The position numbers and the translations under genes are program-made. A stretch of DNA of 64,000 bases, from contig CAWEKR010000011.1 in the NCBI GenBank assembly GCA_963809615.1, forward strand, positions 50,951 through 114,950, written 5' to 3'. Positions 21,618-40,260 of this stretch are shown here, one piece after another. This DNA comes from an uncultured Chloroflexia bacterium. Lineage in GTDB: Bacteria > Chloroflexota > Anaerolineae > Anaerolineales > UBA4823. The notes under the pieces are model-generated. The model did no database searches. It was not told the DNA's origin and worked only from the letters and a program-made list of their open reading frames with translations. The stretch's first letter is position 1. Each line of letters begins with the position of its first letter.

Positions 21618-21742
21618 GAGGGGAGCCTCCAGAGGGGTTGAACGGATTCCTTTATTGTAACTGTGAATTGAGCCATAAATGGTTAATAAATGCTGGTATG
21701 TATCCTGCACAATAGGGGGAGAAAATCCCTTGATGAATCCTC

Positions 21743-21771
21743 TTGACCTAGAACAAATGTTCTGTTATACT
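21743..21771 (+). promoter_or_regulatory. Near-consensus sigma70 promoter upstream of the 81-aa ORF
   Basis: TTGACC (21743-21748), a 17-nt spacer, then TATACT (21766-21771). It lies 82 nt upstream of ATG 21853. Confidence 0.7.
21750..21763. promoter_or_regulatory. LexA-type SOS box candidate (GAAC-N4-GTTC) inside the promoter spacer
   Basis: AGAACAAATGTTCT has 6+6 nt perfect inverted arms (AGAACA/TGTTCT). It matches the Gram-positive/Cheo-box core GAAC-N4-GTTC. Confidence 0.6.
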
Positions 21772-21852
21772 ATAAAGCGTGGCAATTATGCAATAATATC
21801 GAGAAGATCACTCGATATCCAGTAATAAGATAACGTTGGCGGAGGTTTTGAA

Positions 21853-22098
21853 ATGAACATCGGAATGCTGTGGTATGACAATGATAACAAGGCTGACCTG
21901 GCGACTAAAATCCAGAAAGCAGTGAATTATTACCATTTGAAGTATGGGAAGGAACCCAACCTATGCCTGGTGCATCCAAGGACGTTGGGCACAACATCGT
22001 GGAAAAGTGTAGGTCTTGAGGTAAGAACCACACGCTCGGTACTACCGAACCATTTTTGGTTGGGGGTTAATAATAATGGAAACCCGGTTAAATCGTGA
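21853..22098 (+). CDS. Small hypothetical protein (81 aa), candidate SOS-regulated
   Basis: GGAGG SD 7 nt upstream. The sequence is MNIGMLWYDNDNKADLATKIQKAVNYYHLKYGKEPNLCLVHP.... It has no TM helix and no family I can name with certainty. Confidence 0.65.
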   Translation: MNIGMLWYDNDNKADLATKIQKAVNYYHLKYGKEPNLCLVHPRTLGTTSWKSVGLEVRTTRSVLPNHFWLGVNNNGNPVKS

Positions 22099-23092
22099 GC
22101 TCGGTCACCAGCAGCTCAAGGGCCAGCTCTGCCTCCATTTGACCAGTCTTAATCGCTTCATCAAGGTCCAGCAACCGGTGATAGATCATATCAAGGGATT
22201 TACCAGGAAAGTGTGGAGCGCTCTCCATTGCCAGTTTAGCGGGGTAGTAGGCAATTTTTAATGACCTCGGAATGTCATTGATAGATCCACGGTCGTCGAT
22301 CAATTCTTTGGCAATAATTAGCACCCGAATTTGATAAACGATACTCTGAAAGATCCTCCCCGGATCGTCCTCCTGCAGGCTCCTATGGAGCAGTGCTTGG
22401 GCTTTGCCTGGGTTGCGATCACGCAGGGCATTCACCAGCTCGAAATCACCGATTTTCGCAGTCAAGGGAGTGAGGTGCTCAACGTCATCGACATCCACCG
22501 GGCGTGAGAAGTTTACATATGTCAACAACTTGGTAACCTCCTGTGAAGCCAGGCGGGTATCATTACCAATTTGGTTGGAAAGTGAGACAGCTGCCTGGGG
22601 TGTGATTTGCCCACCAACCGATTTCACATACTCCTGGATCCACTTGACCATTTGTGCACCGCCCGGCTGGGGATGGTGGCGCAGGTAGACACGTTTCGAT
22701 TGCTCAGCCGATACAGCCCATTTTTCCAGCCAATTCAGCCTGCCATCTTTCCGTTCTTTTTCGCTGGTGAGGAACTCGTATTCGACCAAAATCAATTTTG
22801 AGCTTGGTTTATCTGCTGCCAGATAGGTTAAGAATTCCTGCTGATCTTTTTTGTCTTTCAGGCGGAAAGTTGGGTGGCTGAGAATGACCAGCCTTTTGGC
22901 AGCCAGGAAAGGTACCGTAGCAACTGCATCTTTGAGCTGGGATAAGGAGAAAGACCTGCCATCCAGGCGGGTGGTATTCATGCCGGCGATGCTGGCATCG
23001 CCGAGTCGGCTGGTTACCTTTTCAATGGATTCGTTGATTGCAAACTCATCGTCGCCATCAAATAGATAAATTTCGGGGGTCTCCTCTGCCAC
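22088..23092 (-). CDS. holA: DNA polymerase III delta subunit
   Basis: 334 aa with a typical HolA layout (YLFDGDDEF..., LSQLKDAVATVPFLAAKRLVIL, C-terminal helical domain). The GTG start immediately follows the TAG of the upstream ORF. Confidence 0.8.
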   Translation of the reverse strand: MAEETPEIYLFDGDDEFAINESIEKVTSRLGDASIAGMNTTRLDGRSFSLSQLKDAVATVPFLAAKRLVILSHPTFRLKDKKDQQEFLTYLAADKPSSKLILVEYEFLTSEKERKDGRLNWLEKWAVSAEQSKRVYLRHHPQPGGAQMVKWIQEYVKSVGGQITPQAAVSLSNQIGNDTRLASQEVTKLLTYVNFSRPVDVDDVEHLTPLTAKIGDFELVNALRDRNPGKAQALLHRSLQEDDPGRIFQSIVYQIRVLIIAKELIDDRGSINDIPRSLKIAYYPAKLAMESAPHFPGKSLDMIYHRLLDLDEAIKTGQMEAELALELLVTELTI

Positions 23093-32174: not shown

Positions 32175-32201
32175 ATTTAAAGTAATTGCTATAAGAGGTG
32201 C

Positions 32202-32759
32202 TTAGGCAGCTTGCTGTTCCAGGCTCAAGAGCCAGGCTTTTAATTTAATCCCACCCGGACCACCATAACCATGCAGAGAACCATCCGAACCGAGAACTCG
32301 ATGGCAGGGTATCACCAGGGGAATGGGATTGGTGGCTTCGACACGGCCTACGGCACGTGCGGCATTCATATTGCCGACCTGGATAGCGATATCCTTGTAA
32401 GTTGAAGTACTGCCATAGGGAATCTCAGAGGTTAGGCTCAGCACCTGCTGTTGAAACCTGGTCCGTGTAGATAAATCCAGGGGTAGATTAAATTGGCGCC
32501 GGATACCGGCTAGGTATTCGCCCATCTGCCGGACCGGCTCGGAGGTGCGCGATTCATCATAGACTGCAGCAGCATGAAAACGCGCCTTAACCTGCTTTAT
32601 GAAATCAGTCTGCGACATGCTCCATTCGACTGTCACGAGCCCACAGTCGGTAACCGCCACCCACAACGGACCAATCGGGCTGGATCGGAGCAGACCTATA
32701 TAAACCGGCGAGGCTATCAGATGAGTAGATTTTGGATGATACGCAGCGGATGGTTTCAT
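32202..32759 (-). CDS. ogt: Methylated-DNA--protein-cysteine methyltransferase (O6-alkylguanine DNA alkyltransferase)
   Basis: The C-terminal domain has YKDIAIQVGNMNAARAVGRVEATNPIPLVIPCHRVLGSDGSLHGYGGG..K.WLL. The catalytic PCHR motif is present. Confidence 0.9.
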   Translation of the reverse strand: MKPSAAYHPKSTHLIASPVYIGLLRSSPIGPLWVAVTDCGLVTVEWSMSQTDFIKQVKARFHAAAVYDESRTSEPVRQMGEYLAGIRRQFNLPLDLSTRTRFQQQVLSLTSEIPYGSTSTYKDIAIQVGNMNAARAVGRVEATNPIPLVIPCHRVLGSDGSLHGYGGPGGIKLKAWLLSLEQQAA

Positions 32760-32780
32760 TTTTCTTGAAAGGGGGATATT

Positions 32781-33665
32781 TTAGTAATTCGTAACCATAT
32801 CGAGCAAGCCCCTCTCCCTTGCGATGTGCTCACAATAGCGAAAGAGATAATAAGCGATAACACCAAATACAATGGATAACGCAATCAGGATGCCGACAAT
32901 CTGCTGATTACTTAAGTTCTCAAAGGTGGGAAAAGCGGCGGCAACTTCACCAACCAATGCACGCCGAAGAATTTCCAGCCAATAGGTGACGGGATTAAGA
33001 TAACCTACCCAACGAATCCAGACCGGCAGGACTTCTAATGGAAAGATTGCCCCACTGAAAAGGAAAAGCGCGCCGGCGACCGCATCACCGATGAACCAGA
33101 CATGGTTTACGATCATCAAGCTGATCCCTGCGAGGATTAGCCCCATCATAGCGAGCATGACGATGCCAATGCCAAGGGATCCAATGAAGAGCGGCCAATT
33201 GATAGCTGCTGGGTTAATACTCACGTGCAAAAAGAGCACACCGAAGATGATGGTGATAAAGACCGAGATTGAGCCGACCAGGAACTTGGCGACACCCCGC
33301 CCGATGAGGTAGGCCGGGATATTAATAGGCGCAATATACATAAATTTTAGCGTCTTGTAGTGCTCGCGGTCATCGATCACTGCCCAGGATATCCCGGTCA
33401 TCACAGAACCCACGTAGATATAAAATGCATTTCCCAGGTAGATGTAGGTGAATATTGGCGAGGTGAAATCACCGCTGGTGATGACACTATACATGACGAC
33501 CAGGATGGCAGCCCCTGCCAGTGGCTTGATGATGGAATAAATCGCAAAAAGGAAGGGGTCAGTCCAGTTGGATTCTATCTGCCAGCCCAACCAGGCAGCG
33601 ACGCGAAAAGAGCGCGTATAGGTGGGCAAGCGAGTTGTTGGTGTGGGGAGTTCGGTTGATTGCAT
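32781..33665 (-). CDS. ABC-2 type transporter permease
   Basis: 294 aa with 6 predicted TM segments. It lies directly downstream of a second permease and a DrrA-like ATPase on the same strand. Confidence 0.7.
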   Translation of the reverse strand: MQSTELPTPTTRLPTYTRSFRVAAWLGWQIESNWTDPFLFAIYSIIKPLAGAAILVVMYSVITSGDFTSPIFTYIYLGNAFYIYVGSVMTGISWAVIDDREHYKTLKFMYIAPINIPAYLIGRGVAKFLVGSISVFITIIFGVLFLHVSINPAAINWPLFIGSLGIGIVMLAMMGLILAGISLMIVNHVWFIGDAVAGALFLFSGAIFPLEVLPVWIRWVGYLNPVTYWLEILRRALVGEVAAAFPTFENLSNQQIVGILIALSIVFGVIAYYLFRYCEHIARERGLLDMVTNY

Positions 33666-33683
33666 AGCAAGCCTCGAGGCCTA

Positions 33684-34583
33684 TTAGCGGCGGTTTTCAG
33701 TAAGACGCCCTTCACGGATAGCCAGCTTTTCCATGTGGGCGAGCATTAACCTGGCGGCGAAGAGAAATACGACACTCAATACCAATAAGATGATGATCTC
33801 AACGCGCACAGATAAAAAGCCCAAGGAAGGACCGGTGGGGAATACGAGCTGGCGCATGGCATCCATACCCAAGGTGAGGGGGATAAATGAAGCGGCAGCA
33901 GAAATCCAGAAACCAAAGTTGCGAATGGGGAAATAAAAGCCGGAGAACAAGTATACCGGCTCCTGGGCAAGGTTGGAGATATGCCAGGCTTCCCGGCTGA
34001 GCAGGAGGTAAAGTGAAGCTGCCATCATCCCGAGACCATACAGGGCGATCATGGTGAGGAAAAAGACGGCAAAAAGCTGGGCGAAGCTGGACACAGCATA
34101 ATTGACTTTGAATAGCAGGCTGCCGATGACGATAATCACCACGGCACGCAGTGTGGTGGCTAACAAACCACCCAACGCCATTCCCAACAAGATCGCCATC
34201 ATTGAAGATGGGCTGATGATATACAGCGCGAGGTTGCCCTGTTCCTTCTCCCAATACAGCTGACTGGACATGCTCCAAAGCACATTCATCCAAAAAGCGA
34301 TCATCGCCCCACCGACGACGACGAAACCGATGTAGTCCTCAGGCGCATTGATCGCACGGTATACAAACACATAAGCGAATACAGAAAGAAGCGGCATCAG
34401 GATGTCGAAAAAAAGCCAGGATTTTTCACGCTGCTGACCAATGAGGCGAGGGTAGGCTCGGGCGAACACACATTGAAGGTACAGCCTCCAGCCGGTGTTC
34501 TTATGCAAGCGTTCCTCAGTAGACGGCTTCAATCCGTCCTGCTGAGCAAGAATGATGGGAGCGGTGGAAGGATTATCACTCAT
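33684..34583 (-). CDS. ABC-2 type transporter permease
   Basis: Polytopic membrane protein. The start is set at MSDNPSTAP (ATG 34583), which overlaps the ATPase stop by 8 nt (ATGAGTGA). Confidence 0.7.
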   Translation of the reverse strand: MSDNPSTAPIILAQQDGLKPSTEERLHKNTGWRLYLQCVFARAYPRLIGQQREKSWLFFDILMPLLSVFAYVFVYRAINAPEDYIGFVVVGGAMIAFWMNVLWSMSSQLYWEKEQGNLALYIISPSSMMAILLGMALGGLLATTLRAVVIIVIGSLLFKVNYAVSSFAQLFAVFFLTMIALYGLGMMAASLYLLLSREAWHISNLAQEPVYLFSGFYFPIRNFGFWISAAASFIPLTLGMDAMRQLVFPTGPSLGFLSVRVEIIILLVLSVVFLFAARLMLAHMEKLAIREGRLTENRR

Positions 34584-35592
34584 CCTCCACCTCCTTCTGC
34601 TCAACCTCTTCCATACTCTGCCCGACGAGCTTGACGAACACATCCTCCAGTGAGGGTTCGTTCTTTTTTAAGTTTAACAGGCGGATATTGGCAGAGTTTA
34701 AGGTGTTAATCACCCCCGCCAAGGCCTGCTCTTCTTCAAGGATCAAGTCGAGGGCCTCGAACCCTTCCTGAGGACGGTGAACGACGTTGCAAACGCCGGG
34801 AATCGTTTCGAACTGCGACGCATTCAAGCTGCCATTAAAAGGACTGACTTCCAGGTGAAAAATTGCTTCCTGCTGCAGGTGGCGTTTGAGGTTGGCGGGA
34901 GTATCGCATGCCAATACTCGCCCCAGGTTAATGATGGCGACCCGGTCACACAGCTCATCGGCCTCTACCATGTAGTGAGTGGTGAGCATCAATGTGCGTG
35001 TGGGATTTTTATCCACCCAGGAGCGGATGAACGCACGCACTTCACGTGAGGCACCTACATCCAGACCGAGGGTGGGCTCATCCAGGAAGAGCACATCCGG
35101 ATCAGTCATAAATCCTCGGACAATGTTCATCTTCTGACGCAAACCGGTGGATAAATCGGAAGACTTGGCATTGATGCGGTCTGACAGACCAACCACTTCA
35201 AGCAGGTATTTGATGTTACGGTTGGCAACATCTGAGGAAAGCCCGTAGAACTGGGAGAACATCCATAGGTTCTCACGCACGGTAAGCAAGCCATAGCCGG
35301 AGGTCTCACCACCAGATACCATGTTGATGCGCGGGCGCACTTTATCAGGGTCTGCAGCGACATCGAAACCAGACACCCAGGCATGACCGGTTGTGGGAGC
35401 GAGCAAGGTGGTGAGGATCTTGATCAAAGTGGTCTTGCCGGCGCCATTCGGACCGAGCAAGCCGAACAGCTCACCAGGATGGATTTCGAGATTAACATCG
35501 GTGAGTGCTACCAGCGAACGGGGCTCTGATTTTTTTCCGCCGCGGATCTTGTAAGTACGTCCCAGGTTTTCAGTGTGAATTGCAAAATCCAT
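34576..35592 (-). CDS. ABC transporter ATP-binding protein (DrrA/ABC-2 exporter type)
   Basis: Walker [10 protein letters not shown], signature LSTGLRQKM, Walker B VLFLDEPTLGLD and H-loop TTHYM. An extra C-terminal domain is present. Confidence 0.9.
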   Translation of the reverse strand: MDFAIHTENLGRTYKIRGGKKSEPRSLVALTDVNLEIHPGELFGLLGPNGAGKTTLIKILTTLLAPTTGHAWVSGFDVAADPDKVRPRINMVSGGETSGYGLLTVRENLWMFSQFYGLSSDVANRNIKYLLEVVGLSDRINAKSSDLSTGLRQKMNIVRGFMTDPDVLFLDEPTLGLDVGASREVRAFIRSWVDKNPTRTLMLTTHYMVEADELCDRVAIINLGRVLACDTPANLKRHLQQEAIFHLEVSPFNGSLNASQFETIPGVCNVVHRPQEGFEALDLILEEEQALAGVINTLNSANIRLLNLKKNEPSLEDVFVKLVGQSMEEVEQKEVEDE

Positions 35593-35623
35593 AGAATCTT
35601 TCTACCCATTTCTCAATATTGTT

Positions 35624-35652
35624 GGTAATTCGTAGGGTAATCGTAGGTTACC
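35624..35652. promoter_or_regulatory. Direct-repeat element (GGTAATTCGTAGG / GGTAATCGTAGG) next to a TTGACG -35-like hexamer upstream of the ABC-2 operon
   Basis: The plus strand reads ggtaattcgtagg gtaatcgtagg ttacc. On the minus strand TTGACG (35658-35653) immediately precedes it. This is a possible operator overlapping the promoter, but the -10 is weak (TACGAA/CTACGA). Confidence 0.3.
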
Positions 35653-35726
35653 CGTCAAGTACGAATTCTTGGTATCTGCTATGATGTTAGCTGTAGGGCG
35701 ATTTCTCTTCTTCTCCTCCTTTTAAA

Positions 35727-35755
35727 GAGAGCCGGTAGTGGCGTACCCGGCTCTC
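35727..35755 (-). terminator. Stem-loop downstream of the tandem-GNAT gene
   Basis: GAGAGCCGG-loop 11 nt-CCGGCTCTC. On the minus strand it is followed by TTTAAAAGG, a short U-tract. Confidence 0.4.
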
Positions 35756-35775
35756 GTTTGTTGTGGAGACACCGG

Positions 35776-36744
35776 TTAACCAGCCTGAACATCCATAGCT
35801 AAATCGATCTGATAACACACCAGCTGGCGTATCTCTTCAAACCCCAGCTCGCGGTACATTTTTAATACCTCCAGCTTATCTCCCCACGATTCCAGCTCCA
35901 CTATGGTCTGTCTCTGTTGATGAAGCCATCGGATGCCGGTCAGCACAAGGGCGCGGTATAGGTCTAAGCGGCGATGCTGGGGGACAACCCCTGGGGCGTC
36001 AATATAGCCGGTGGGAGTCCCGTTTTTCATGGTCCGCCCAGGTGAAGGTTCCGCCCGGCAGATCCCGACTCCCCTGCCTTTTTCGGAAAAAACCAGGAAA
36101 AGACCCTGTTGATCAAAGCCCGGCAACCGGGTGGATAGCTCTGCTTCACCAACCTGGTGGTGACCCCATAGAGGGATATAGCCCAGGCTCATTATCTGAC
36201 TCAGGATGGATACATTCTGGACCTCCGAATATGGCCGCATGGTATATCCAAAGGGCCAAATAACAGGGGGCAGACGGACATCCTGGGTGAGGCGCAGCTC
36301 TGTGTAAGCTCCCTGAGCAATGAAACCTCGTTTTTGTAGGAACCCAGGTGCATCAGGTTGGCTGGCGCTGGTATAGATTTGCATGGCGGTGGAATCAAGC
36401 TGGTGCGCCCGATCCATTACACTGGATAGCATGGTACTGCCAAGTCCATGGTGACGCCAATCGGGATGAATTACGATATTCGCCTCAGCCATTGTTGCTC
36501 CTGGGATGGCTTTCAGTAACGCTACACCAATCATAGTGGAAGGATTGTCTGGGTCATCCACAACCCAACGGTCCTTGAGCGGGTCGTGCCCAGGTAAACG
36601 CAATTCGTCCAGCAAATCCATCTCACTGAGCGCAGTCCCAGCATGGTCAACGGCTTCTACGACTGAGTAAAGCGATAAAAGTCGGGGGATATCCTGGTCT
36701 GGAAAGAATGAACGGATAAGCAACTGGTTCTGGTTCATGGTCAT
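35776..36744 (-). CDS. GNAT family N-acetyltransferase with two tandem GNAT domains (MshD-like architecture)
   Basis: 322 aa. The first domain has IVIHPDWRHHGLGSTMLSSV (acetyl-CoA P-loop-like R-x-x-G-x-G). The second domain has VVPQHRRLDLYRALVLTG. Confidence 0.7.
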   Translation of the reverse strand: MTMNQNQLLIRSFFPDQDIPRLLSLYSVVEAVDHAGTALSEMDLLDELRLPGHDPLKDRWVVDDPDNPSTMIGVALLKAIPGATMAEANIVIHPDWRHHGLGSTMLSSVMDRAHQLDSTAMQIYTSASQPDAPGFLQKRGFIAQGAYTELRLTQDVRLPPVIWPFGYTMRPYSEVQNVSILSQIMSLGYIPLWGHHQVGEAELSTRLPGFDQQGLFLVFSEKGRGVGICRAEPSPGRTMKNGTPTGYIDAPGVVPQHRRLDLYRALVLTGIRWLHQQRQTIVELESWGDKLEVLKMYRELGFEEIRQLVCYQIDLAMDVQAG

Positions 36745-36931
36745 GATAAAGCGAGCTTGCCTTATTAATAATAAAAATTCTGAACCTTGTGTTCCACACT
36801 ATATGCGAGGTGGTCAGTGACACGCTGCAGGAAAGCTAATAATTTTCCCTTGCTGATAAAGGCTAATTATTGTACCACCTTCCACAATCAGGCGATTTTA
36901 TCTACCCCATCACAAAAATTGGAAGGGAGGA

Positions 36932-37513
36932 CTACGATTCCGTTAGGGTAAGAATTTCCTGGTAGCGAAAACAATCTCTCGTATGATCGTTAACCATGCC
37001 CACCGCCTGCATGTGGGCATAACATATAGTAGGACCGACGAACTGAAAACCACGCTGAATAAGGTCTTTGCTAAATTGGCGCGAAATTTCCGTCTCCGCG
37101 GGGATCTCATGATCCGCGGTCCAGCAGTTAACGATGGGCTTGCCCCCTACGAACTGCCACATGTAGGCATCAAAGCTGCCGAACTGCTGCTGGATTTTTA
37201 AGAAGGACTGGGCATTACGGATGGCGGCGTTGATCTTAAGGCGGTTGCGGATAATGCCCGGGTTTGCCAGCAGCTCTGACAGCTTAAGCTCATCGTAAGC
37301 GGCGATTTTCTGGGGGTCAAATCCATCAAAGGCTGAACGATAATTGGGACGCTTTTTCAAAATCGTATACCAGCTTAAACCGGCTTGTGCGCCTTCTAAA
37401 ATGAGGAATTCGAATAGCAAGTGGTCATCGTGGACAGGAACCCCCCATTCCTGGTCGTGATACGCCTGGTAAAGCGGGTCATCCGTATTGGCCCAAAAGC
37501 AGCGGGTTGGCAT
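36932..37513 (-). CDS. tag: DNA-3-methyladenine glycosylase I
   Basis: RCFWANTDDPLYQAYHDQEWGVPVHDDHLLFEFLILEGAQAGLSW is the canonical Tag N-terminus. C-terminal Zn-site residues (CYAHMQAVGMVNDH) are present. Confidence 0.9.
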   Translation of the reverse strand: MPTRCFWANTDDPLYQAYHDQEWGVPVHDDHLLFEFLILEGAQAGLSWYTILKKRPNYRSAFDGFDPQKIAAYDELKLSELLANPGIIRNRLKINAAIRNAQSFLKIQQQFGSFDAYMWQFVGGKPIVNCWTADHEIPAETEISRQFSKDLIQRGFQFVGPTICYAHMQAVGMVNDHTRDCFRYQEILTLTES

Positions 37514-38195
37514 TAAGTTGTCTCCTTGCCATAGCGTTGTTCACTATTGATTGGCAGCGCGATGCGTAGCGATCATTCGACCAATTCTGCCCCGATAGCC
37601 GCTCGAGAAGAGGCCCAGCATACTGGAGCTCATGGGCGGCAAATGGATCATCAGACTCGGATAGCATTAGGATGGTGTAGTAAAACGGGAAGCCGTGCCA
37701 TTTCCCTTTTCCATCGCGGTGGCCCGCCAGCGCAGTCAAAAATTGGCTCAAATGCACTGCAGAGTCTTCATTATCGAGGGCAGCCAAATAGCGCATATAT
37801 GCCACCGTCAGTGATCTGCATTCTCCCTTGGAGCAAAACGTACTATAACACATCAAATTCATGCGCCGGTCGGATAATTGGATGGACCTGGCGGCAGCTG
37901 GATTATCCGGCGCAAGGAGGGCAAGCACTCTGGTAGTCTCGATGAGTGGCATGTGGCGGCAAGCAAACTCAGTACGAAGCATTTCGCCAGTGAAGAGCCT
38001 GGTTTGGCTGCGCGGTTCAGAGGCGTACGGGATGAAGAACCCGGAATTCGATCCTGTAAGTATCTGCCGTTTAATGAATAAGTGGGCAAGCTCATCCCGA
38101 AGCGCAGGCGCGATGGCCCTTTGAAAAAATAATACCTCCGTTGCAGAGTCAAGACTGGCGGTTAAACTGGTTGGATGGAAGATGATCATTTTCAC
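37479..38195 (-). CDS. Hypothetical protein
   Basis: 238-aa ORF between a GNAT gene and tag, overlapping the tag start by 35 nt. It appears helical and Cys-containing (CYSTFCSKGEC). I recognise no family. Confidence 0.5.
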   Translation of the reverse strand: MKMIIFHPTSLTASLDSATEVLFFQRAIAPALRDELAHLFIKRQILTGSNSGFFIPYASEPRSQTRLFTGEMLRTEFACRHMPLIETTRVLALLAPDNPAAARSIQLSDRRMNLMCYSTFCSKGECRSLTVAYMRYLAALDNEDSAVHLSQFLTALAGHRDGKGKWHGFPFYYTILMLSESDDPFAAHELQYAGPLLERLSGQNWSNDRYASRCQSIVNNAMARRQLNANPLLLGQYG

Positions 38196-38213
38196 CCCTC
38201 TCTCATTCCATGA

Positions 38214-38771
38214 TCAAAGAATATATCTCATGATTGGACGGGTCTCGGACCGCCTGGCGACTTCGCTAAATCCGGCTTGCTTGAATGCGGAATATAACCC
38301 GGTGTATAAGAAGACATCCGGGGCTTTACCGCCTTTTGGCTCAACAGGATACCCTTCAACGATACAAGCGCCTTTCGTCCTGGCATATTCTATGGAAGCC
38401 TGTAATAGCTTCACGGTTAATCCCGTCCGTCTCTGGCGGCGAGCGGTAAAGAAGCAGACCACTGACCAGACCGGCTGATTGTCCACGGGTTTAAGGATGC
38501 GCGAGCGCGCCAGGGTGGGGAACTCTTCACGCGGGGCGATGGAACACCAGCCGACAGGCTCATCCGCTTCATACGCCAGGATGCCCGGAATATTGCCCGA
38601 ATCCACCAGCGCTTTGATATTCCGCCTGTTTGGCTCACCATGCTGCTCGTTATATTGGGTAGGAGAAAGGCGCCAATACATGCACCAGCAGCCTCCACAG
38701 GCGCCACGCGGGCCAAATAATTTTTCAAAATCCGTCCAACGTTGTGGGGTAAGAGGGTGGAAAGTGATCAT
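38214..38771 (-). CDS. GNAT family N-acetyltransferase
   Basis: The N-terminal CGGCWCMYWR motif and the core VVCFFTARRQRRTGLTVKLLQASIEYA (Q/RxxGxG/A-like) are typical of a widespread single-domain GNAT subfamily. Confidence 0.75.
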   Translation of the reverse strand: MITFHPLTPQRWTDFEKLFGPRGACGGCWCMYWRLSPTQYNEQHGEPNRRNIKALVDSGNIPGILAYEADEPVGWCSIAPREEFPTLARSRILKPVDNQPVWSVVCFFTARRQRRTGLTVKLLQASIEYARTKGACIVEGYPVEPKGGKAPDVFLYTGLYSAFKQAGFSEVARRSETRPIMRYIL

Positions 38772-38785
38772 TAATAGTGTTCCTC

Positions 38786-38809
38786 AAAAAAACGAATCGG
38801 TTCGATTCA
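38786..38809 (-). terminator. Small Rho-independent terminator candidate right after the acidic-protein gene
   Basis: The minus strand reads TGAATCG-AAC-CGATTCG followed by seven T. It starts 3 nt after stop codon 38813-38815. The stem is short (6-7 bp). Confidence 0.45.
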
Positions 38810-38812
38810 AAC

Positions 38813-39706
38813 TCAGGTGAGGTCGAATTCGAGGTATCCCCGACCCTGTTCAGCCTGGTATGCCGTAGTATTGGATGGCGAGGTAGACTGGATCTCCGAG
38901 GGCAAAGTCCGAGAATCAGGAGTGGAGTCAACGGGAGAATAAGAATTTAGACCCTTGAGATCCTCGTCATCCCCAAAGTCATCCTCGTCATCATCATCAT
39001 CTTCATCCCAATCGGATTCGTAATCGTCCTCGTCGTCATCATCCTCGTCATCGTTGTCATCATCCTCTTCTTTATCCGGCTCTGGAATAGCTTCTTCTCC
39101 TTCGAAATCCTCATCGCTCCCAAGATCATCATCATTTTCATCGACCTCAACAGCGGGCACGTCATTCTTATCCTCATCATCAAGGTCGTCTTCATCGTCA
39201 GGCTCATCGCCGTTACTGCCGTCTTCTTCAACCAGGTCTTCATCCTCATCTAAATCGTCTTCATCATCATCAGGATCACCCCCGTTCACCGCGTTAAAGG
39301 TGTTATTGGTTGGAACCAGAGCTACACGTTGGGATGGAAGGAGGTCAAATTTTTCACATTGCCCGATAGAATCACCTTGTGGGATGCGGTAAGAACTGAT
39401 GAACTGAGATGACCCGGTTTGAAGCGGTCGTGCGCTGCGGTCATCGTAAGTACCAGTCTGCACCAGGGCTAGCGCAGTGAGGGTAGTTATTTTTACCACT
39501 AACTGAGAAAACAGGTCACCTGCCGGAGTGGAGCACTCGTTTTGCGGAGTTGGGACGATTGAGGAGAATAAATCCGCTTGGGTGAGTGTGAACATTGTAG
39601 AAGCAGGGTCGGGAGTATTGTTGGAGAGACCAAATAATCCGGCGAAATTGAGGCGTGCCTTGCCAAGGATGCGAAGATGAGGGTTTAAGCGATAATTTGT
39701 CACCAT
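38813..39706 (-). CDS. Hyper-acidic hypothetical protein (central Asp/Glu tract)
   Basis: 297-aa ORF with a non-acidic N-terminal ~140 aa. A ~111-aa tract follows in which I count 72 D/E (GGDPDDDEDDLDEDEDLVEEDG...DWDEDDDDDEDDFGDDEDLKG). The tail is Ser/Thr/Pro-rich. I recognise no family. Confidence 0.6.
   Translation of the reverse strand: MVTNYRLNPHLRILGKARLNFAGLFGLSNNTPDPASTMFTLTQADLFSSIVPTPQNECSTPAGDLFSQLVVKITTLTALALVQTGTYDDRSARPLQTGSSQFISSYRIPQGDSIGQCEKFDLLPSQRVALVPTNNTFNAVNGGDPDDDEDDLDEDEDLVEEDGSNGDEPDDEDDLDDEDKNDVPAVEVDENDDDLGSDEDFEGEEAIPEPDKEEDDDNDDEDDDDEDDYESDWDEDDDDDEDDFGDDEDLKGLNSYSPVDSTPDSRTLPSEIQSTSPSNTTAYQAEQGRGYLEFDLT
38951..39283 (-). repeat. Low-complexity GAT/GAC/GAA/GAG codon tract encoding the poly-acidic region
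   Basis: Read directly: a long run of gat/gac/gag/gaa codons on the minus strand. It generates the Ser-rich shadow ORF 39054..39392 on the plus strand. Confidence 0.85.
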
Positions 39707-39807
39707 TGCCTAACTTTCGTTTTCACATGCGGAAGGTCTTCCCAGATCAATGTAGTATAGCCAGGTAAAATCACACATACAGTCGATCGAAATATTTTCG
39801 TAATCGA

Positions 39808-40203
39808 TCAAACCTGTGTGGATGGACCTTCCCATGAATATATTATTAAGTCGATCCGATCGCGGTCATCAAAAACCACTCCCTCAGATTCGAGCAGCTC
39901 GCGTTGTTGAGAACCACCTACCCCAGGGCGAAGGCTGACTTTACCTTGAGAGTTGATGACGCGCTGCCATGGGACGTCCTGTGGGCAATTTGCCATAGCA
40001 CCACCAACCCAGCGAGCGCCGAATGACAGGTACGATTTTGGATCCATCCCCGGAGGTGGAGGTAGAAAAGCAGCAATTCGACCATAGGTGGAGACCTTAC
40101 CAGCAGGAATCTGGCGAACAAGCGCCCACACGCTGTGATTGAATTCATCCCGTCTGGGTGGTGAAATGTAACGTTGAGCTGCATGAATGGCTGCAGGAGC
40201 CAT
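39808..40203 (-). CDS. atl: Alkyltransferase-like (ATL) protein: MGMT fold lacking the catalytic cysteine
   Basis: MGMT DNA-binding domain (VWALVRQIPAGKVSTYGRIA...ARWVGGAMANCP). PWQRV (DVPWQRVIN) replaces the catalytic PCHRV. The start is set at ATG 40203 (AAGGA 9 nt upstream); the track start is 40212. Confidence 0.8.
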   Translation of the reverse strand: MAPAAIHAAQRYISPPRRDEFNHSVWALVRQIPAGKVSTYGRIAAFLPPPPGMDPKSYLSFGARWVGGAMANCPQDVPWQRVINSQGKVSLRPGVGGSQQRELLESEGVVFDDRDRIDLIIYSWEGPSTQV

Positions 40204-40231
40204 AATTCCCATCCTTTTTTACGTAGTAACA

Positions 40232-40260
40232 AATATACCAGAACGCATGTTCTAGGTCAA
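40232..40260 (-). promoter_or_regulatory. Near-consensus sigma70 promoter upstream of the ATL gene
   Basis: The minus strand reads TTGACC (40260-40255), a 17-nt spacer, then TATATT (40237-40232). It matches the promoter at 21743..21771 at 24 of 29 positions. Confidence 0.7.
40240..40253. promoter_or_regulatory. LexA-type SOS box candidate (GAAC-N4-GTTC) inside the promoter spacer
   Basis: AGAACGCATGTTCT on the plus strand, with 5+5 nt perfect inverted arms AGAAC/GTTCT. Its position within the spacer is the same as the box at 21750..21763. Confidence 0.6.

Follow-up and report, generated by a model that had tools for sequence, protein, structure and literature searches.

The hyper-acidic open reading frame at 38813..39706 on the minus strand of the window (the whole 64,000-nucleotide stretch of DNA analysed here) is a genuine gene encoding a protein of 297 aa. 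As judged by homology search, it belongs to a large, uncharacterised family of Chloroflexota proteins in which a VOC (glyoxalase/bleomycin-resistance) domain is followed by an acidic tail, and it is a degenerate member of that family, linked to a gene for an alkyltransferase-like (ATL) protein. Family membership, ATL linkage, an operator-bearing promoter, decay of the VOC domain and constraint on the tail are established by the comparisons presented below. In the model that we tentatively prefer, while granting it somewhat less than an even chance, the gene is the second cistron of an SOS-type ATL operon, its VOC domain has decayed and its constrained tail is a free polyanion that competes with nucleic acid.

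With a pI of ~4.05 and a net charge of ~-72 calculated from its composition, the 297-aa protein is as acidic as an earlier sequence-only reading had claimed. The N-terminal stretch of ~140 residues and the Ser/Thr/Pro-rich tail described in that reading were likewise recovered: residues 1-143 are of ordinary composition (9 D/E, 10 K/R, pI 7.8), and Ser, Thr or Pro account for 18 of the 47 residues in the C-tail (residues 251-297; 38816..38956, minus strand). Between them lies the D/E tract, residues 144-250 (DPDDDEDD...GDDEDL; 38957..39277, minus strand), which was said to contain 72 D/E in ~111 residues; the count of 72 is correct, accompanied by 2 K/R, but the length is 107 residues. The N-terminal part holds the remnants of a terminal extension (residues 1-23) and of the VOC domain (residues 24 to ~122; together 39341..39706, minus strand), both evolving neutrally; the D/E tract, which is predicted to be disordered, is the only segment under purifying selection. 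Its C-terminus, GYLEFDLT (38816-38839), is a divergent version of the family motif EY[IV]D[IL]D[IL]T. An antisense Ser-rich ORF (39054-39392, plus strand) was rejected as a real gene because, in the window as in most relatives, a stop interrupts the antisense frame sharing the wobble positions within the tract, and because the sense frame runs on from the VOC domain in hundreds of relatives. A possible internal start is present at codon 140 (GTG in the window, ATG in the sister genome L010), where the constraint begins; no Shine-Dalgarno sequence precedes it in either genome. No signal-peptide-like N-terminus, which would bear on a reading of the product as a secreted calcium-binding exoprotein, was seen by eye on the acidic protein.

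The family is recovered only by an exhaustive phmmer search. A word-indexed homolog search with residues 1-143 returned no matches, the acidic protein itself included, and neither this protein nor the ATL protein had a match by exact look-up. Exhaustive phmmer with residues 1-143 yielded 16 relatives, the intact members of the family among them (E = 4.6e-10 to 9e-4), and a profile of the intact core collected at least 535 proteins. The N-terminal 140 residues, assigned to no recognised family in the earlier reading, are thus a degraded VOC domain, and the ORF has relatives and so is conserved. The family plan consists of a basic helical N-terminal extension of ~50 aa, conserved in intact members, the VOC domain, a D/E-rich disordered tail and a C-terminal motif of the EY[IV]D[IL]D type. 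Tails are universal, with a median of 106 aa, 37.5% D/E and a net charge of about -31 (-31.5); the motif is nearly universal, and the ends include ...EYVDIDAA and ...EYVYEDDL. Intact orthologs pass the Pfam PF00903 cutoff of 20.6 bits (L008, 32.1 bits, E = 1.7e-7; L003, 23.2 bits; P0009, 26.1 bits). In the AF2 model of the intact member P0071, the core assumes a VOC fold (pLDDT ~90, tail ~50) for which Foldseek returned TnmS1, MRD, FosA and GloA (5umq, 1kll/2a4w, 1npb, 1f9z) as matches. The window protein had no match in Pfam even at E <= 0.1. Its alignment with the family is colinear, with a single 47-aa gap, and it evidently shares common descent with VOC-domain proteins.

The gap, 47 columns wide in the comparison with L008, is an in-frame deletion (junction 39638/39637) that removed strand 1 and at least the start of helix 1. 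Only 15 of the 44 family-invariant core positions survive in the window copy. Structure prediction, which had been proposed earlier for the N-terminal domain, gave an AF2 model with a mean pLDDT of 58, a pTM of 0.28 and no residue at or above 90. Given the deletion, the surviving positions and the model, no complete paired beta-alpha-beta-beta-beta fold was found in the window protein; without strand 1, helix 1 and most of the invariant residues, it is probably unable to adopt the VOC fold. The VOC domain of intact orthologs has a dN/dS of 0.07. Between the window and L010, the N-terminal part has a dN/dS of 0.81, codon-position differences of 34/44/44 and a nucleotide divergence of 28%, as compared with 24% at neutral 4-fold sites. 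In both the window genome and its sister, the VOC domain has been inactivated by the deletion and the loss of most invariant residues, and the N-terminal part is drifting neutrally. That this part has stayed open could be chance, the probability of which was put at 5% by simulation.

Decay of the core is what would be expected if pseudogenisation were in progress, that is, if the family function required the VOC domain, the remaining ORF were functionless and the tract were merely undecayed so far. In addition to the neutral core and its few remaining invariant positions, several properties of the gene and its clade favor this explanation. The C-tail evolves neutrally between the window and L010 (codon-position differences 10/9/13), and L010 has lost the C-terminal motif to two in-frame stops; L006 carries a frameshift, and the acidic gene is missing from L009. 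The Shine-Dalgarno sequence of the acidic gene is GAAAG in the window as compared with GGAGA or GGAAG in intact relatives, and the terminator hairpin described below is unconserved. The VOC-deleted variant is found only in the window and the one sister genome, and it appears to be rare, since none of the 600 pattern matches obtained when metagenome contigs were scanned with the entire window protein was confirmed. Arguing against pseudogenisation is the behavior of the tract. Between the window and L010, the tract has a dN/dS of 0.25, 80% amino-acid identity and codon-position differences of 2/8/26, hence 10 changes at positions 1 and 2 and 26 at position 3, with no indel and no change of length in 107 codons (321 nt), whereas the N-terminal part, over the same divergence, has 78 changes at positions 1 and 2 and 44 at position 3. 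Comparable values of dN/dS are 0.33 for the tail of intact orthologs and 0.03-0.34 for neighbouring genes. A dead low-complexity GAN tract should slip or drift no slower than its flanks. Moreover, independent losses of the VOC domain, each with the tail kept, are seen in L001/L002, L007 and P0006, and the tail persists without the VOC domain in at least four independent lineages. Pseudogenisation in progress is therefore held to be rather unlikely. A free-running microsatellite, raised as a possibility by the sequence-only reading, was also rejected: Tandem Repeats Finder detected only weak, imperfect arrays in the tract (scores 30-74, within 38960-39067), and the selection and constant length just described do not fit unconstrained repeat variation.

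Repeated loss of the VOC domain, together with selection on a tail of ~110 residues, suggests that the tail is active in its own right, and the substitution data make the free polyanionic tail seem to be what selection keeps in the window lineage. D-to-E swaps occur in the tract at an approximately neutral rate as compared with L010, which means that charge alone is conserved and not sequence. AF2 assigns the tract a pLDDT of ~50-57 and no secondary structure. Charge-only conservation fits several polyanion functions equally well, and it was for this reason counted against the competitor reading. Also counted against it were the signs of ongoing gene loss in the clade (the premature stops in L010, the frameshift in L006 and the absence of the gene from L009) and, further, the weakened Shine-Dalgarno sequence, the simulated chance of an open N-terminal part and the spread of ATL isoelectric points.

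The tail might instead regulate the VOC domain in cis as a tether, with its EY[IV]D[IL]D motif docking on the core or on a partner; it would then have no independent activity, and its retention would reflect a contribution to solubility or the action of an entropic bristle. The near-universality of the motif agrees with a role of this kind, as do the dN/dS of 0.32 in the C-tail of intact orthologs and the rise of the last 8 residues of intact P0071 to a pLDDT of 77 at the end of a poorly predicted tail. However, the tract has stayed constrained even though the motif region evolves neutrally in the window lineage and is lost to premature stops in the sister genome. Since constraint on the tract persists without constraint on the motif or the core, it is independent of both, and a tether function is considered very doubtful.

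The gene directly upstream (39808..40212, minus strand; 134 aa; Pfam PF01035, E = 3e-19) is an ATL gene by its domain content: it encodes the Ogt-type DNA-binding domain (PF01035) alone, without the N-terminal methyltransferase domain, and Trp occupies the position of the active-site Cys: the window ATL and all ten of the related ATLs checked have VPWQRV instead of PCHR. ATLs bind O6-alkylguanine without being able to repair it, and how these bacterial proteins are regulated and passed to nucleotide excision repair is still unclear (PMC7835731). In loci fetched by the family VOC protein, the gene directly preceding it in the same orientation is ATL in 8 of 8 cases, with gaps of 1-106 nt, and in loci fetched by ATL the acidic ORF lies downstream in 8 of 9; in distant relatives the ATL and partner genes nearly overlap. 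A sigma-70-type promoter is predicted in front of the pair (40232..40260, minus strand; scan score 10/12), in which TTGACC and TATATT, the latter with TG, are separated by a 17-nt spacer and flank GAACATGCGTTC (40260-40232). Inside the spacer, between the -35 and -10 hexamers, is a LexA-type operator, AGAACATGCGTTCT (40240-40253, minus strand). The arrangement TTGAC-N-AGAAC-N4-GTTCT-N-TATAnT occurs upstream of ATL in 15 of the 17 related loci in addition to the window. In Firmicutes and Actinobacteria the LexA motif is GAAC-N4-GTTC, of which variants occur in Chloroflexi (PMC4951493). The palindromic operator thus overlaps the promoter and is conserved in the orthologous promoters, as is characteristic of a GAAC-N4-GTTC LexA regulon, to which the pair is predicted to belong. 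The proposal that the acidic gene forms a two-gene unit with ATL is well supported by the synteny, which the suggested survey of gene neighbourhoods found in 16 of the 17 related loci, and by the operator.

The details of the predicted transcription unit agree in part with those given earlier. The spacer between ATL and the acidic gene (39707..39807, minus strand; 101 nt), which includes the weakened Shine-Dalgarno sequence, had been described as having no convincing terminator, and no terminator-like site was found in it by the scan. A TATACT element was placed 12 nt off, at 39766-39771, and lies at 39754-39759; its proposed use as a promoter of the acidic gene alone was rejected, as the promoter scan made no call there and the hexamer is conserved only in L010. 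The small hairpin with a T7 run exists directly after the stop codon of the acidic gene (38786..38809, minus strand; 7 pairs, 3-nt loop; hairpin and T7 run at 38809-38793), and its conservation appears weak, its 3' arm being absent in L010.

Further repair genes lie near the pair, Tag at 36932-37513 and Ogt, with its PCHR motif, at ~32202-32780, so that the placement of atl, tag and ogt within 8 kb was accurate. The next gene of the conserved island encodes a GNAT acetyltransferase (38214..38771, minus strand; Pfam PF00583) and shows synteny in L001-L011 and L017. The ATL/acidic pair is usually followed by genes for Tag, Ogt, GNATs and a DrrA-like exporter, and the island also carries hydrolases and SRPBCC/AHSA1 proteins, the DrrA-like ABC exporter being located near Tag and Ogt. 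This neighbourhood suits small-molecule detoxification as well as protein-DNA regulation. In a detoxification scenario, the VOC domain would bind or convert an alkylating or DNA-cleaving compound and the tail would capture cationic DNA-seeking drugs or metal ions, the window protein having kept the cation-sponge part. VOC proteins that bind bleomycin, mitomycin or enediynes, as well as FosA and glyoxalase, bind or convert such compounds. The fold matches to TnmS1, MRD, FosA and GloA, the company of the exporter and the modifying enzymes, and the conservation of charge and not of D-versus-E identity are all in accord with this scenario. Against it, intact members score 13-15 bits with the glyoxalase I equivalog (NCBIfam TIGR00068), the cutoff of which is 120, and the window protein does not match it; with Ble-like_N (PF22677), intact orthologs reach 12.8-17 bits (E = 0.005-0.1) and stay below the cutoff of 24.5. 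The strict pairing and near-overlap with ATL, and not with the exporter, suggest a protein partner, and a tail without a binding domain would be a weak sequestration device. Detoxification is accordingly judged unlikely as the function of the gene. Intact orthologs share the paired beta-alpha-beta-beta-beta fold with TnmS1-3, BLMA / Sh ble, MRD, FosA and glyoxalase I, and like VOC resistance proteins they are found among genotoxin-defence genes. Unlike those resistance and binding proteins, they possess the ~50-aa basic N-extension, a ~100-aa D/E tail and an EYxDxD end, and are strictly paired with ATL behind a LexA box. In the literature searched, no VOC protein bearing an acidic tail was found, nor any paper pairing 'alkyltransferase-like' with 'glyoxalase'.

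In the competitor model, the product made after DNA damage would in effect be a free disordered polyanion of ~110 residues with a net charge of ~-70. Through its charge it would compete with nucleic acid for the basic DNA-binding surfaces of repair proteins expressed along with it. Foremost among the candidate partners is ATL, as the two genes are predicted to be co-transcribed and nearly overlap in distant relatives, although the ATL pI varies across loci from 5.8 to 9.6, which argues against simple charge complementarity with the acidic tail. By this means, the tail might limit non-specific DNA binding or help in turnover and hand-off. Charge, disorder, operon context and retention of the tail make such a role toward ATL or other DNA-binding proteins plausible; a tail that outlasts the VOC domain fits the model without proving it. 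Close counterparts are the acidic disordered regions of HMGB1 (its tail), DSS1, prothymosin-alpha and histone chaperones, with Npm2/Nap1 as further examples, which like the window tract contain a long disordered D/E segment with conserved net charge; as predicted by AF2, the window tract is such a segment, with charge and not sequence conserved. DSS1 and HMGB1 are acidic disordered 'electrostatic DNA mimics'. Acidic disordered regions compete with DNA for basic protein surfaces, those of histones included (PMC10987829). These counterparts are eukaryotic, whereas the window tract comes from a bacterium, where it originated as a VOC protein's tail and is encoded in an ATL operon predicted to be under LexA control.

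The sequence-only reading had likened the protein to Ocr, ArdA, Ugi and DMP-type proteins. They share with the acidic ORF a large negative charge and the proposed targeting of DNA-binding proteins, and the DNA-repair neighbourhood would suit a structured mimic of this kind. Ocr, ArdA, Ugi and DMP19/DMP12 are rigid folds that display carboxylates in a DNA-like geometry. By contrast, the acidic part of the window protein is predicted to be disordered and offers no rigid DNA-shaped scaffold, the folded part is VOC-homologous and decayed, and no match was obtained in Pfam or NCBIfam and no meaningful one in PADLOC or PHROGs. A structured DNA mimic is thus extremely improbable.

A bolder version of the competitor model would make the whole family a dedicated, stoichiometric partner of ATL, a damage-induced polyanionic 'DNA-mimic chaperone' that either prevents ATL from binding undamaged DNA or removes it from lesions so that UvrA and nucleotide excision repair can follow; the window lineage would then be reduced to a stand-alone prothymosin-like polyanion. 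We regard this version as distinctly unlikely, but if true it would represent the first free acidic disordered protein of bacteria acting in DNA repair. Whatever its function, a conserved, unnamed partner gene of ATL behind a LexA-type operator across a Chloroflexota lineage is a concrete candidate for the regulation of ATL. The window provides a natural experiment in which the folded VOC domain is lost and the polyanionic tail is still selected. To our knowledge, D/E tracts of such length are uncommon among bacteria. If a free acidic disordered protein proved to be functional in a bacterial SOS operon, 'electrostatic DNA mimicry' would no longer be confined to the chromatin proteins of eukaryotes; with an inert tail, the locus would still be a clean, dated example of domain-by-domain gene decay.

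A looser resemblance links the family tail to the acidic C-terminal tips of single-stranded DNA-binding proteins such as E. coli SSB (DDDIPF) and T7 gp2.5. Both are acidic and disordered and terminate in a short acidic-hydrophobic end that may be a docking peptide. As compared with the SSB tips, the family tail is much longer, follows a VOC domain instead of an OB fold and carries a different motif.

The acidic ORF (38813-39706, minus strand, 297 aa) encodes a protein with a net charge of about -72 and a pI of about 4.05, as calculated from its composition. Residues 1-143 are of ordinary composition (pI 7.8), residues 144-250 carry Asp or Glu at 72 of 107 positions and only two Lys/Arg, and Ser, Thr and Pro make up 38% of residues 251-297. 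The hyper-acidic character and the 72 Asp/Glu noted in the sequence-only reading are therefore borne out; a repeat scan rejected the tract as a clean microsatellite. The gene begins 101 nt after the end of the ATL gene (39808-40212, minus strand), a gap in which a scan revealed no terminator-like site, and its stop codon is followed by a 7-pair hairpin and a T7 run. The TATACT element proposed as its own promoter is situated at 39754-39759, not at 39766-39771, and is not conserved. Tag (36932-37513) and Ogt with its PCHR motif (about 32202-32780) are encoded nearby.

The protein has no match in Pfam or NCBIfam, and a word-indexed search with its N-terminal part yielded none. The initial reading had recognised no family; exhaustive phmmer with residues 1-143 found one, returning the window protein itself and 16 relatives. 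Scanning genomes with the adjacent ATL identified nine loci in synteny, in MAGs of Anaerolineae-like Chloroflexota, and eight of these loci hold an acidic ORF in the same slot. The intact orthologs L003, L004 and L008 (320-344 aa) clear the threshold of Pfam model PF00903 (Glyoxalase/Bleomycin-resistance; L008: E = 1.7e-7, aa 54-163), and a search with a profile built from the intact core brings up at least 535 proteins of 200-310 aa, named in their sources only as 'hypothetical' or 'catechol 2,3-dioxygenase-like lactoylglutathione lyase family enzyme'. Members combine an N-extension that is basic and helical and spans about 50 aa (NYPINPRVRAYGKARIDIAQRA..DWEKLW..FPF.WGE.WK), one VOC domain, a D/E-rich tail (median 106 aa, 37.5% D/E, net charge -31.5) and, in nearly all of them, a motif at the C-terminus (PEY[IV]D[IL]D.., EYVYEDDL or ..IWKVRYS). 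The window protein is a member by descent of this uncharacterised, ATL-coupled and LexA-box-controlled VOC-plus-acidic-tail family.

Comparison with L008 shows an in-frame loss of 47 residues from the window protein, which takes in the latter half of the N-extension, strand 1 and the beginning of helix 1. At the 44 core positions invariant among 12 intact members it retains 15; 12 are deleted and 17 substituted. The same deletion is present in the sister genome (L010, protein P0002), where synteny holds throughout; its neighbouring proteins are 84-97% identical to those of the window, but the acidic ORF only 60%. Independent decay of the VOC core that left the tail in place is also seen elsewhere: L001/L002 (L001 685-1428) and L007 (7673-8362) carry different deletions, and the family protein P0006 carries substitutions, 19 of them at invariant sites. 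The acidic gene is frameshifted in L006 (10569-11096) and lost altogether from L009.

Between the window and L010 the N-terminal part (aa 1-143) has a dN/dS of 0.81, with 34, 44 and 44 differences at codon positions 1, 2 and 3, and its nucleotide divergence is 28% compared with 24% at the fourfold sites of neighbouring genes. The acidic tract (aa 144-250) has a dN/dS of 0.25, with 2, 8 and 26 differences and no indels, and the C-tail (aa 251-297) one of 0.56, with 10, 9 and 13 differences and two in-frame stops in L010; neighbouring genes range from 0.03 to 0.34. In the intact pair L008/L003 the corresponding values are 0.15 for the N-extension, 0.07 for VOC, 0.81 for the linker, 0.33 for the acidic tract and 0.32 for the C-tail. 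From this comparison it follows that the core of the window copy has been released from constraint whereas the tract keeps the constraint seen in intact genes. At third positions the tract changes at the neutral rate, and roughly half of these changes exchange D for E or the reverse; therefore selection preserves acidity, not residue identity. An antisense frame sharing the wobble positions was rejected as the cause of this pattern because neither the window nor the majority of relatives keep it uninterrupted. The acidic ORF is a real gene whose core is dead and whose tail is live; that it is simply dying is unlikely.

AF2 modelling of the intact protein P0071 (L011 7001-7927) predicts a pair of helices at the N-terminus, a VOC core with a pLDDT of about 90, and a structureless tail with a pLDDT of about 50. 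Within the C-terminal PEYIDLDLP, the last eight residues (301-308) reach a pLDDT of 77, a hint that this motif may dock on the N-extension or on the folded core. The window protein, modelled with the family alignment, attained a mean pLDDT of only 58 and a pTM of 0.28. A structured mimic of the Ocr type, as first suggested, is very improbable, since the acidic part is predicted to be disordered and the protein has no profile match in Pfam, NCBIfam, PADLOC or PHROGs. Foldseek neighbours of the P0071 core are VOC proteins with diverse roles, namely glyoxalase I, FosA, TnmS1, which binds enediynes, and MRD, which binds mitomycin; sequence-profile matches are to 3b59, 5uhj and 5umq. The family does not qualify as a glyoxalase I equivalog, since intact members score 13-15 bits where the cutoff is 120. 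That the tail is what remains of a VOC protein for sequestration or detoxification, and serves as a sponge for cations or genotoxins, is a little less probable than a dying gene.

In all eight loci fetched via family proteins of different subclades, an ATL-only gene lies immediately upstream on the same strand, at distances from 1-2 nt (L012, L014) to about 105 nt, and all ATLs checked contain VPWQRV, in which Trp replaces the catalytic Cys. The ATL promoter of the window, TTGACC-tAGAACATGCGTTCTgg-TATATT (40260-40232), and its embedded operator recur in 15 of 17 loci. In Firmicutes and Actinobacteria the LexA motif is GAAC-N4-GTTC, and variants of it have been reported from Chloroflexi (PMC4951493). 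This recurrent pairing behind an operator-bearing promoter lends good comparative support to the earlier prediction that ATL and the acidic gene form a damage-inducible unit. A cis-regulatory tether devoid of trans activity is improbable.

The selected product is perhaps a disordered polyanion of about 110 residues that would be synthesized together with ATL after DNA damage, a reading we hold tentatively. Most economically, it would compete electrostatically with nucleic acid on basic DNA-binding surfaces, as acidic disordered regions do on histones (PMC10987829), ATL being the first candidate target. Such a mechanism is relevant because the hand-over of ATL to UvrA/NER is poorly understood (PMC7835731). 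A DNA-mimic function of the tail is an unproven candidate, and the window copy is partly decayed. Neither the VOC fold nor an acidic disordered tail is new in itself; their combination in one protein, the strict coupling to ATL downstream of a LexA-type operator, and repeated core loss with tail retention were not found in the searchable literature. The family is a lead on a candidate ATL partner that is worth testing.

Downstream of the pair, in varying order, are Tag, Ogt, GNATs, hydrolases, SRPBCC proteins and a DrrA-like ABC exporter. They belong to a conserved 'alkylation/genotoxin island' (window about 32200-40260, minus strand; L010-L017), whose order, largely kept among Anaerolineae-like MAGs, is LexA-box promoter, ATL, VOC-acidic gene, (alpha/beta hydrolase), GNAT, a 238-aa protein without family, Tag, second GNAT, DrrA-like ABC ATPase with two ABC-2 permeases, Ogt and PilZ. 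The GNAT following the acidic gene (38214-38771, minus strand) has a Cys-rich motif near its N-terminus (GACGGCWCMYWR) that, judged by eye, is conserved across all syntenic loci. The 238-aa protein (37479-38195, minus strand), whose gene runs 35 nt into the start of Tag, matches nothing in Pfam or NCBIfam; it is kept in L003, L006, L008, L009 and L010, with 85% identity and a dN/dS of 0.23 relative to the last. A second promoter with the LexA-box architecture of the ATL promoter (21735-21775, plus strand; cTTGACCtAGAACAAATGTTCTgtTATACT) precedes an 81-aa ORF without Pfam family (21853-22098, plus strand), which has a good Shine-Dalgarno sequence, may encode a small SOS-induced protein and is convergent with holA (DNA polymerase III delta; 22088-23092, minus strand).
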